From Escherichia coli (lineage in GTDB: Bacteria > Pseudomonadota > Gammaproteobacteria > Enterobacterales > Enterobacteriaceae): a DNA stretch of 12,747 nt. The translations under genes and the position numbers were made by a program. The notes beneath the pieces are model-generated. The model was not told the origin of the DNA. It did not search any database and was given only the letters and a program-made list of their open reading frames with translations. This document shows, piece by piece, positions 1-932 of the stretch (its first letter is position 1; each line of letters starts with the position of its first letter). Location: NCBI RefSeq assembly GCF_003334255.1, contig NZ_QOWU01000081.1. One strand, written 5' to 3'.

Positions 1-658
1 TTGTGCGCTGCTTCAGTATGCTGATGGCTGTCTGTTCTCCCGGTACGATGTCACTCTCACGGTATACGGAGCGGATTGTTTCCACCGGTAATCCCAGCGA
101 ACGACGCGCTACTGCCTCAGGTAGTGCATCCACCACCTGATTGCAGGCCGCCCACCAGGATAATTCGGCCAGCGATAACTCCCTCTCCTGCGTACCGCTT
201 ATTGCGTGACGGATGACGTCAATCATCCAGGCAACCAGATTCTGCTGAGCAAGTTGATCGAGTGATTCTGATGTCTGGTTGCGCAGCTGGTTGTCACAGT
301 GCCAGCACAACACCATCGCGCCGGTACCGTAACGGTGAATGACTGTTTCGCTGTGATGATAATCGCCGTGTGGCCACTGGCAGGATTTCACGTGACGTAA
401 TAACCAGTCAGACAGTGCACCTGCACCACCTGCTGCACGAATTACCCGCTCATCGCTGAAAAATGGTAGTAATGTTTTATCCTCAGCCAACGGCTGGCTA
501 ACGGCTGCAACGACGCCGGACGGAAGACTGCGCATGTTTTTGGGTTCCGGTTCCACCAATATTCTGCCGTTATGGAATACTGACATTGATTCACGGCCTG
601 GCTTAACGATAACCAGACTGAGTTCCGGTACCAGAACAGGTCGAAGTAATACCCGCAC
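1..658 (-). CDS. Prophage protein with Cys/His cluster (C-x-W-P-H-G-x-x-H-H ... C-W-H-C-D), possibly DUF968-like; C-terminus lies beyond the window start
   Basis: Minus-strand frame is open from the stop at 734-736 down to position 1 (not in the ORF track because it has no stop inside the window). Candidate starts: GTG 656-658 preceded by GGAGG (663-667) and only 1 nt after the stop of the 660-932 ORF, or ATG 584-586, or ATG 533-535. Hand translation: ...MSVFHNGRILVEPEPKNMRSLPSG...LLRHVKSCQWPHGDYHHSETVIHRYGTGAMVLCWHCDNQ... Family assignment is uncertain. Confidence 0.4.
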   Translation of the reverse strand, partial: MRVLLRPVLVPELSLVIVKPGRESMSVFHNGRILVEPEPKNMRSLPSGVVAAVSQPLAEDKTLLPFFSDERVIRAAGGAGALSDWLLRHVKSCQWPHGDYHHSETVIHRYGTGAMVLCWHCDNQLRNQTSESLDQLAQQNLVAWMIDVIRHAISGTQERELSLAELSWWAACNQVVDALPEAVARRSLGLPVETIRSVYRESDIVPGEQTAISILKQRT

Positions 659-659
659 G

Positions 660-932
660 TTACCTCCAGATGCGTTGCTGATATGTGCGGGACGGACGCG
701 GCGGGCGTTCGGAATAAGGGAGCCTGACGGAAATTATCCAGTGTCGGAAGTCAGGACTGAGGCCTTTCTGAAACTGGTATCCACGTCTGCGGTAATTCTG
801 AATCAGCCACTCGGCCTGTTCTTCAGTGCATTGGTCATGCTGGTACCAGTCATATTTGAATGCGTGAGAGCGCCGTCCGTGTCTGCTGGCAGGGTCGGCA
901 TCAGAATTGTGGTGTTTGGTATTGTGCGCCAT
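660..932 (-). CDS. Hypothetical protein, 90 aa (Arg/Pro-rich C-terminus; could be a separate coupled gene or the upstream part of a frameshifted gene continuing into 1-658)
   Basis: ORF track; ATG at 930-932, TAA at 660-662; weak ribosome-binding site. The stop lies inside a GGAGGTAACGTG junction that feeds the next frame. Confidence 0.35.
   Translation of the reverse strand: MAHNTKHHNSDADPASRHGRRSHAFKYDWYQHDQCTEEQAEWLIQNYRRRGYQFQKGLSPDFRHWIISVRLPYSERPPRPSRTYQQRIWR

Follow-up and report, generated by a model that had tools for sequence, protein, structure and literature searches.

The left edge of a 12,747-nucleotide stretch of Escherichia coli DNA, here called the window, carries an open reading frame (ORF) of 90 codons that ends one nucleotide before a GTG codon, from which a second ORF runs on to the edge. 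This arrangement raises the question of whether the two ORFs are separate genes joined by translational coupling or the remains of one larger gene divided by a frameshift, the two alternatives put forward in the original prediction from the sequence. Coupled genes fit all of the evidence presented below, whereas a frameshift split does not. The locus very probably consists of two separate functional genes in the nin region, devoted to recombination and late control, of a Qin/PPompW-type lambdoid prophage, with translation of the downstream gene, ydfU, coupled to that of the small gene preceding it.

Results

Organization of the junction

Both ORFs and the junction between them are located on the minus strand of the window, and the gene order of the prophage on this strand is small gene, ydfU, rusA and Q. 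The 90-codon ORF is confirmed by the ORF list and the sequence to extend from ATG (932..930) to TAA (662..660), and the small gene accordingly occupies 660..932, its product being annotated by PGAP as WP_032155207.1, a "hypothetical protein". The stop codon is embedded as originally described: the reverse complement of 667..656 reads GGAGGTAACGTG, in which GGAGG (667-663), TAA (662-660), a single C (659) and GTG (658-656) directly succeed one another. From this GTG, one nucleotide past the TAA, 219 codons are open up to the window edge (2..658, minus strand); these are the first codons of ydfU, the full product of which comprises 352 aa in the E. coli chromosome NZ_CP116067.1 (WP_021565037.1). 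The two ORFs, which had been called "overlapping-frame", do lie in different frames, but they are separated by a 1-nt gap instead of overlapping.

The GTG is both the PGAP start in NZ_CP116067.1 and the curated start of ydfU in K-12, and it is the sole conserved start of the gene because the internal Met25 of YdfU is replaced by Ile in K-12. The GGAGG, a Shine-Dalgarno (SD)-like element for ydfU, is formed by TGG AGG, the final pair of sense codons (89-90) in the small gene, and is separated from the GTG by 4 nt (TAAC). The TAA is invariant in all 44 distinct intact sequences. No sigma-70 promoter or terminator was found between the small gene and ydfU; the closest terminator-like site on the minus strand (432-409) falls within ydfU and was rejected as unconvincing.

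Conservation of the junction among relatives

Using the small protein as a query, we fetched 80 related viral loci from IMG/VR, 79 of which, representing 46 distinct sequences, have the junction. It takes the form TGGAGGTAA-N-GTG, with ATG replacing GTG in two, and all 79 loci fit TGGAG[G/A]TAA-N-[G/A]TG, always with a 1-nt gap. TGGAGG is kept in 78 of these junctions, the lone exception being TGGAGA, the spacer base between stop and start is C or T, and the Arg codon three codons ahead of the stop appears as CGC, CGG, CGT or CGA. The complete downstream ORFs in these loci encode 348-352 aa, and no indels were found at the junction among the 79 loci and K-12. In NZ_CP116067.1, an E. coli chromosome that is 100% identical, RefSeq/PGAP has two CDSs with exactly this junction, and a phage that is 86% identical to this region of the window likewise has two CDSs with the same junction. 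The alignment of homologues, named in the original prediction as a check on the frameshift alternative, therefore revealed two separate genes at the same junction and no fused form, in the annotation, in the 79 loci and in K-12, and the frameshift alternative fails by that prediction's own measure.

Comparison with the Qin prophage of K-12 showed an identical gene order and an identical junction, TGGAGGTAACGTGCGG; the curated start of K-12 ydfU (b1560) is the same GTG, preceded by identical TGGAGGTAAC. By tblastn the two small proteins share 70% identity, and the 219 ydfU codons present in the window give a dN of 0.07. The two prophages differ in that Qin has an intact rem upstream, an unannotated small ORF, and quuQ (ydfT) directly after ydfU, whereas in the window the small ORF is preceded by a rem-like fragment and the Rosmer pair described below, and ydfU is followed by rusA. 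The K-12 MG1655 homologue of the small gene is an intact ORF of 92 codons between rem and ydfU (NC_000913.3, 1644306-1644584, minus strand), an interval for which the RefSeq feature table holds no CDS. On at least 1000 other contigs the exact protein goes under the name "hypothetical" or "prophage protein", and the small gene has probably been missed in the annotation of the K-12 reference genome.

The terminator upstream of ydfU is among the strongest Rho-dependent terminators in K-12 (PMC9160355). The terminator region corresponds to the unannotated small ORF of K-12, equivalent to about 660-990 of the window, and the small ORF is rich in C in its 3' part (CGCCCGCCGCGTCCGTCCCGCAC), as would be suitable for a rut site. 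If the small gene is poorly translated, Rho polarity acting on it could keep ydfU silent in lysogens.

Selection in each reading frame

Over the final 27 codons of the small ORF, the polymorphic sites number 1, 7 and 19 at codon positions 1, 2 and 3 of its own frame, and the 19 third-position sites would be second positions if read in the ydfU frame. Past the GTG, the excess of third-position changes shifts to the ydfU frame. Comparison of the window with K-12 gave a dN/dS of 0.20 for the whole small ORF and 0.057 for its last 27 codons (8 synonymous and 2 non-synonymous differences), both in its own frame, whereas the 25 codons upstream of the GTG gave 3.65 when read in the ydfU frame. In the frame of ydfU itself, the ratio was 0.137 for the first 24 codons and 0.091 for the 219 codons in the window. 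Both ORFs are thus genes under purifying selection, each in its own frame and beyond what chance would give, and these are two genes that meet at the boundaries described above.

The small protein

The small protein matches the phrog_1212 profile (E=1.9e-36), with profile positions 1-66 of 66 aligned to residues 25-90, up to the last residue. Its homologues form 149 clusters of typically 90-92 aa (maximum 143 aa). Among 38 Escherichia sequences, residues 1-24 are variable, with an in-frame 2-residue indel, and are predicted by the model to be disordered, while residues 25-90 comprise a conserved predicted beta-alpha-beta-beta core and a conserved tail, VRLPYSERPPRPSRT[FY]QQRIWR, which is the most conserved segment of the protein. 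The AF2 model has a pLDDT of about 84 across residues 31-70. A structure search with the core returned generic fold matches only, and the protein has no relative in Pfam, NCBIfam, PADLOC or PDB.

The tail of the window's protein, SERPPRPSRTYQQRIWR, is indeed Arg/Pro-rich, as had been pointed out in favour of a frameshift, but it is not frameshift debris, since no other part of the protein is conserved as well and it changes synonymously in its own frame. Homologues of 66 aa occur in phages of Salmonella, Klebsiella and Yersinia, with conservation at the protein level of 30-50% identity in other genera, and the pattern LP...PRPS...QQK.W is still visible in those with 36-41% identity (mEp237, Gifsy-2 and Yersinia phage PY54). 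Judged from these alignments, the tail is a genuine, selected C-terminus.

In the records of phage vB_EcoS-640R1 (2920-3054 and 3046-3324 of the segment compared) and other ON4706xx entries, the small gene is labelled "toxin to Rem", and a "mobile element protein" is annotated on the strand opposite to it. The possibility that the small protein is Rem was rejected, as tblastn on the rem-ydfU segment of K-12 matches only the unannotated ORF and never rem. Sequence comparisons lend no support to either label.

YdfU and its N-terminal domain

YdfU belongs to DUF968 (PF06147), or His-Me-finger group 7 (Pfam E=4.9e-62), and has the HNH catalytic and zinc motif CxxC...HH...CxxCH. The Pfam match starts at residue 160 and the HNH motif occupies about residues 273-320, in a C-terminal nuclease domain beyond the window. 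The neighbours of its gene are rusA and Q, a neighbourhood that has been described for His-Me-finger group 7 (YdfU, YbcO; PMC5714182). The part of the protein visible in the window falls outside the Pfam model and constitutes an N-terminal domain of 155 residues with its own Cys/His cluster. Phrog_96 aligns to YdfU from position 1, and in distant full-length homologues with 27-49% identity, drawn from a library of 1.8 billion representatives (150 representatives listed), residue 1 aligns to residue 1.

The Cys/His cluster reported from the translation is real and consists of C93, H97, H101, H102, H109, C118, H120 and C121 (C93 ... C118-W-H-C-D-N; window about 296-382, minus strand). In 34 homologues with identities down to 24%, C93 and C118 never vary, and W119 and D122 hardly do. 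The model places the cluster, a putative metal-binding site, in a predicted beta-hairpin and helix (residues 105-125), a beta-beta-alpha element. YdfU is likely to be an active nuclease; our literature search found no experiment on the protein. Its structural relatives, identified by structural search, are P1 Ref and YbcO (3g27), while a PDB sequence search with YdfU gave zero matches, leaving the N-terminal domain with no solved relative by sequence. The idea that the Cys/His cluster is a duplicated, degenerate HNH element was not borne out by sequence, either when the N-terminal part was compared with the C-terminal part by BLASTP (E=0.044; LCWHCDNQL / LCRKCHNKLH) or by profile-profile comparison with hhalign (E=0.076, probability 0.7%), although the modelled beta-beta-alpha element would be in keeping with it. 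The N-terminal domain (residues 1 to about 155-230) also heads three longer representatives of 582-807 aa that have other C-terminal parts, and it therefore behaves as an independent module.

Alternative explanations of the junction

If one ancestral gene had been split by a frameshift mutation or a sequencing error in 659-740, the two ORFs would be pseudogene halves. In 40 of the 46 distinct sequences, the 25 codons ahead of the GTG are indeed open in the ydfU frame, and the tail of the small protein has the biased Arg/Pro composition noted above, but this same stretch is selected in the small-ORF frame and resembles non-coding sequence in the ydfU frame (dN/dS of 0.057 versus 3.65; sites 1/7/19), and one locus carries a ydfU-frame stop just 4 codons upstream of the GTG. 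Fusions are found in none of the 149 small-protein clusters and in none of the 150 YdfU representatives listed, the N-termini of which coincide with the GTG. The constancy of the junction in 79 loci and K-12 without indels, the exact coincidence of the end of phrog_1212 and the beginning of phrog_96 with it, and the alignment of distant YdfU homologues from residue 1 all stand against a split as well. Moreover, the small gene is found ahead of unrelated genes, and its recombination independently of the downstream neighbour argues in the same direction. The frameshift reading is refuted, and the probability we would still assign to it is practically nil.

AGG is a rare codon in E. coli, and in prfB recoding the stop codon occupies the A site. 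Programmed +1 frameshifting of this type at AGG-UAA-C would add a fusion of the small protein and YdfU to the two separate products, and we consider it very improbable. A shift at AGG-U-AAC would enter the ydfU frame, and a rare AGG with a stop in the A site reproduces the prfB arrangement, so that the junction shares with prfB a stop after a potentially stalling codon, an SD-like element nearby and a downstream frame in +1. It differs in that tRNA-Arg(CCU) is unable to re-pair on GGU, leaving no slippery codon; that the SD-like element is misplaced, overlapping the P-site codon, whereas that of prfB lies 3 nt upstream; that ydfU can initiate at a conserved start codon (GTG or ATG) belonging to it; and that the N-terminus is common to distant homologues. 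In addition, AGA replaces AGG in one locus, and in distant homologues the junction either reads GGG-TGA with a 2-nt gap, which is another frame relationship, or contains a 48-nt spacer. The absence of a fusion from databases is not decisive on this point because gene callers would miss such a product. We regard it as highly unlikely, too, that the 90-aa ORF is not a gene and that the region instead represents a 176-aa ORF on the plus strand (534-1064) or an untranslated ydfU leader with a Rho-dependent terminator. A long antisense ORF is present, some RAST-style phage records annotate the opposite-strand "mobile element protein", the K-12 feature table lacks a CDS at the place of the small ORF, and a very strong Rho-dependent terminator lies upstream of ydfU in Qin (PMC9160355). 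The variable sites, however, are third positions of the minus-strand frame and hence first positions of the 534-1064 frame, the protein is conserved down to 30-50% identity in other genera with a dN/dS of 0.20 and a phrog_1212 match of E=1.9e-36, and a Rho site within a poorly translated gene is compatible with a real gene.

Probable translational coupling of ydfU to the small gene

Coupling of adjacent genes is classically known from trpE-trpD, MS2 coat-replicase and the tightly packed nin genes of lambda. The junction between the small gene and ydfU shares with these systems the same strand, a 1-nt gap between stop and start, an embedded SD and a possible hairpin at the start site. Several features expected of a coupled pair are present, namely the same strand, the 1-nt gap, an SD inside the upstream CDS and selection on both ORFs, and the short SD spacer (4 nt) counts against coupling. 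An SD inside the preceding ORF, combined with a stop and a start that are 1 nt apart, is typical of translational coupling, and ydfU translation is likely to be coupled to, and to depend on, translation of the upstream small gene. With GGAGG supplied by codons 89-90 at the end of the small gene and GTG one base past the TAA, terminating ribosomes would be delivered to the ydfU start, where they might either reinitiate directly or unfold a local hairpin covering the SD and the GTG. Coupling therefore appears to be the best-supported mechanism at the junction, although ydfU could equally be initiated independently at the same GGAGG.

The predicted mRNA hairpin (652..691, minus strand) is formed by pairing of CCCGCAC (codons 81-83) with GUGCGGG, which comprises the start codon and the four bases after it; the SD is enclosed between the two arms. 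The predicted energy for the window is -15.5 kcal/mol (z -1.9; 6 of 200 shuffled sequences did as well). The K-12 version, in which UUCCAG additionally pairs with CUGGAGG, reaches -19.3 kcal/mol (z -2.1), and the hairpin is thus only marginally better than shuffled sequence. None of 44 sequences varies at the third positions of codons 81-83, whereas adjoining four-fold sites do vary. Among the 79 loci there were no compensatory changes in the hairpin, and the variants GTGAGGG, ATGCGGG and CCAGCAC break the stem uncompensated. The hairpin is thus a tentative candidate at best for the structural basis of coupling.

The small gene in the nin regions of other phages

The 66-aa homologues of the small gene occupy the same slot of the nin region in other lambdoid phages, ahead of varied genes. 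The next gene downstream is a YbcO-like HNH gene in mEp237 (2-nt gap), YbcO in a Klebsiella ST974 phage (4-nt overlap), and a short, YbcO-sized gene that is not classified, followed by rusA, in Cronobacter phiES15 (4-nt overlap). NinG/Rap follows in Gifsy-2 (2-nt gap) and Edwardsiella GF-2 (1-nt gap), DUF968 in a Klebsiella ST846 phage (1-nt overlap), RusA in PHB10 (4-nt overlap), a Dcm methylase in Erwinia phage 59 (16-nt overlap) and an unknown gene in Yersinia PY54 (48-nt gap). The variety of neighbours and the tight spacing indicate that tight packing is a property of the whole operon and that the small gene recombines independently. The C-terminal codons of the small gene again form an SD in mEp237 and Gifsy-2, with TGGGGGTGA-NN-ATG. 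In phage nin regions, the Trp-Gly/Arg-stop codons of this gene regularly supply the SD of the next gene.

These neighbourhoods bear on a further reading, in which the phrog_1212 protein is a dedicated partner (a regulator, specificity factor or inhibitor) of the nin nucleases YdfU, YbcO-like, NinG/Rap and RusA, kept at a fixed ratio by coupling, with Rho silencing the nuclease gene in lysogens and with K-12 lacking the annotation of a functional gene. On this reading, Rho would be able to silence the nuclease gene because the small gene is poorly translated and the sequence of its tail is rich in C. We find such a partnership doubtful. Tight packing is not by itself an argument for it, because it is general in nin regions, and the frequent place of the small gene ahead of recombination nucleases is a modest lead to the function of the small protein, not evidence of partnership.

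Separate and probably coupled, the two genes meet at an ordinary compact phage gene boundary, and the pair is already annotated as separate genes in thousands of E. coli genomes. The significance of the locus lies mainly in correct annotation, as the K-12 MG1655 table apparently lacks a conserved, intact and selected small gene; a second practical point is that the "toxin to Rem" label lacks support.

Prophage context

Over its first 1000 bases the window is 100% identical to E. coli chromosomes, and of 5426 complete E. coli genomes, 4544 contain similar sequence. Matches with 82-86% identity were obtained to twenty phage records, among them those of PPompW prophages and Stx2a-converting phages. 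The prophage of NZ_CP116067.1 adjoins ompW and has the order int, xis, exo ... racR ... queH, hokD, a 216-aa gene and a 368-aa gene, continuing with a pseudogene fragment, the 90-aa WP_032155207.1, the 352-aa WP_021565037.1, rusA and an antiterminator gene.

A Rosmer anti-phage defence pair is encoded on the minus strand at 1323-3057. RmrA (1323-2429; PADLOC E=6e-105) is a 368-aa protein with an HTH and an ImmA/IrrE-type peptidase, and RmrT (2407-3057; PADLOC E=5e-25) is the product of a 216-aa ORF that overlaps the rmrA ORF. The pair is located between hokD and a rem-like ORF, a place at which hokD and rem are adjacent in K-12 Qin, with relBE beyond hokD, and the prophage seems to have a slot for variable cargo at this site. 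The rem-like ORF (73 aa; 992-1213, minus strand) contains a segment, MKIEELREIFSEDGLYAVRVENG, similar to the N-terminal sequence of K-12 Rem, MMNIEELRKIFCEDGLYAVCVENG, with divergence beyond it; PGAP annotates 1091-1165 as an incomplete pseudogene. This ORF is probably a mosaic recombination joint inside rem. A strong hairpin resembling an intrinsic terminator, ACCCGCTTCGGCGGGT followed by a T-run (1318-1303, minus strand), lies directly after rmrA, and a promoter-like TTGAAG-18-TAGAAT (1278-1249, minus strand) precedes the rem-like ORF, the small gene and ydfU.
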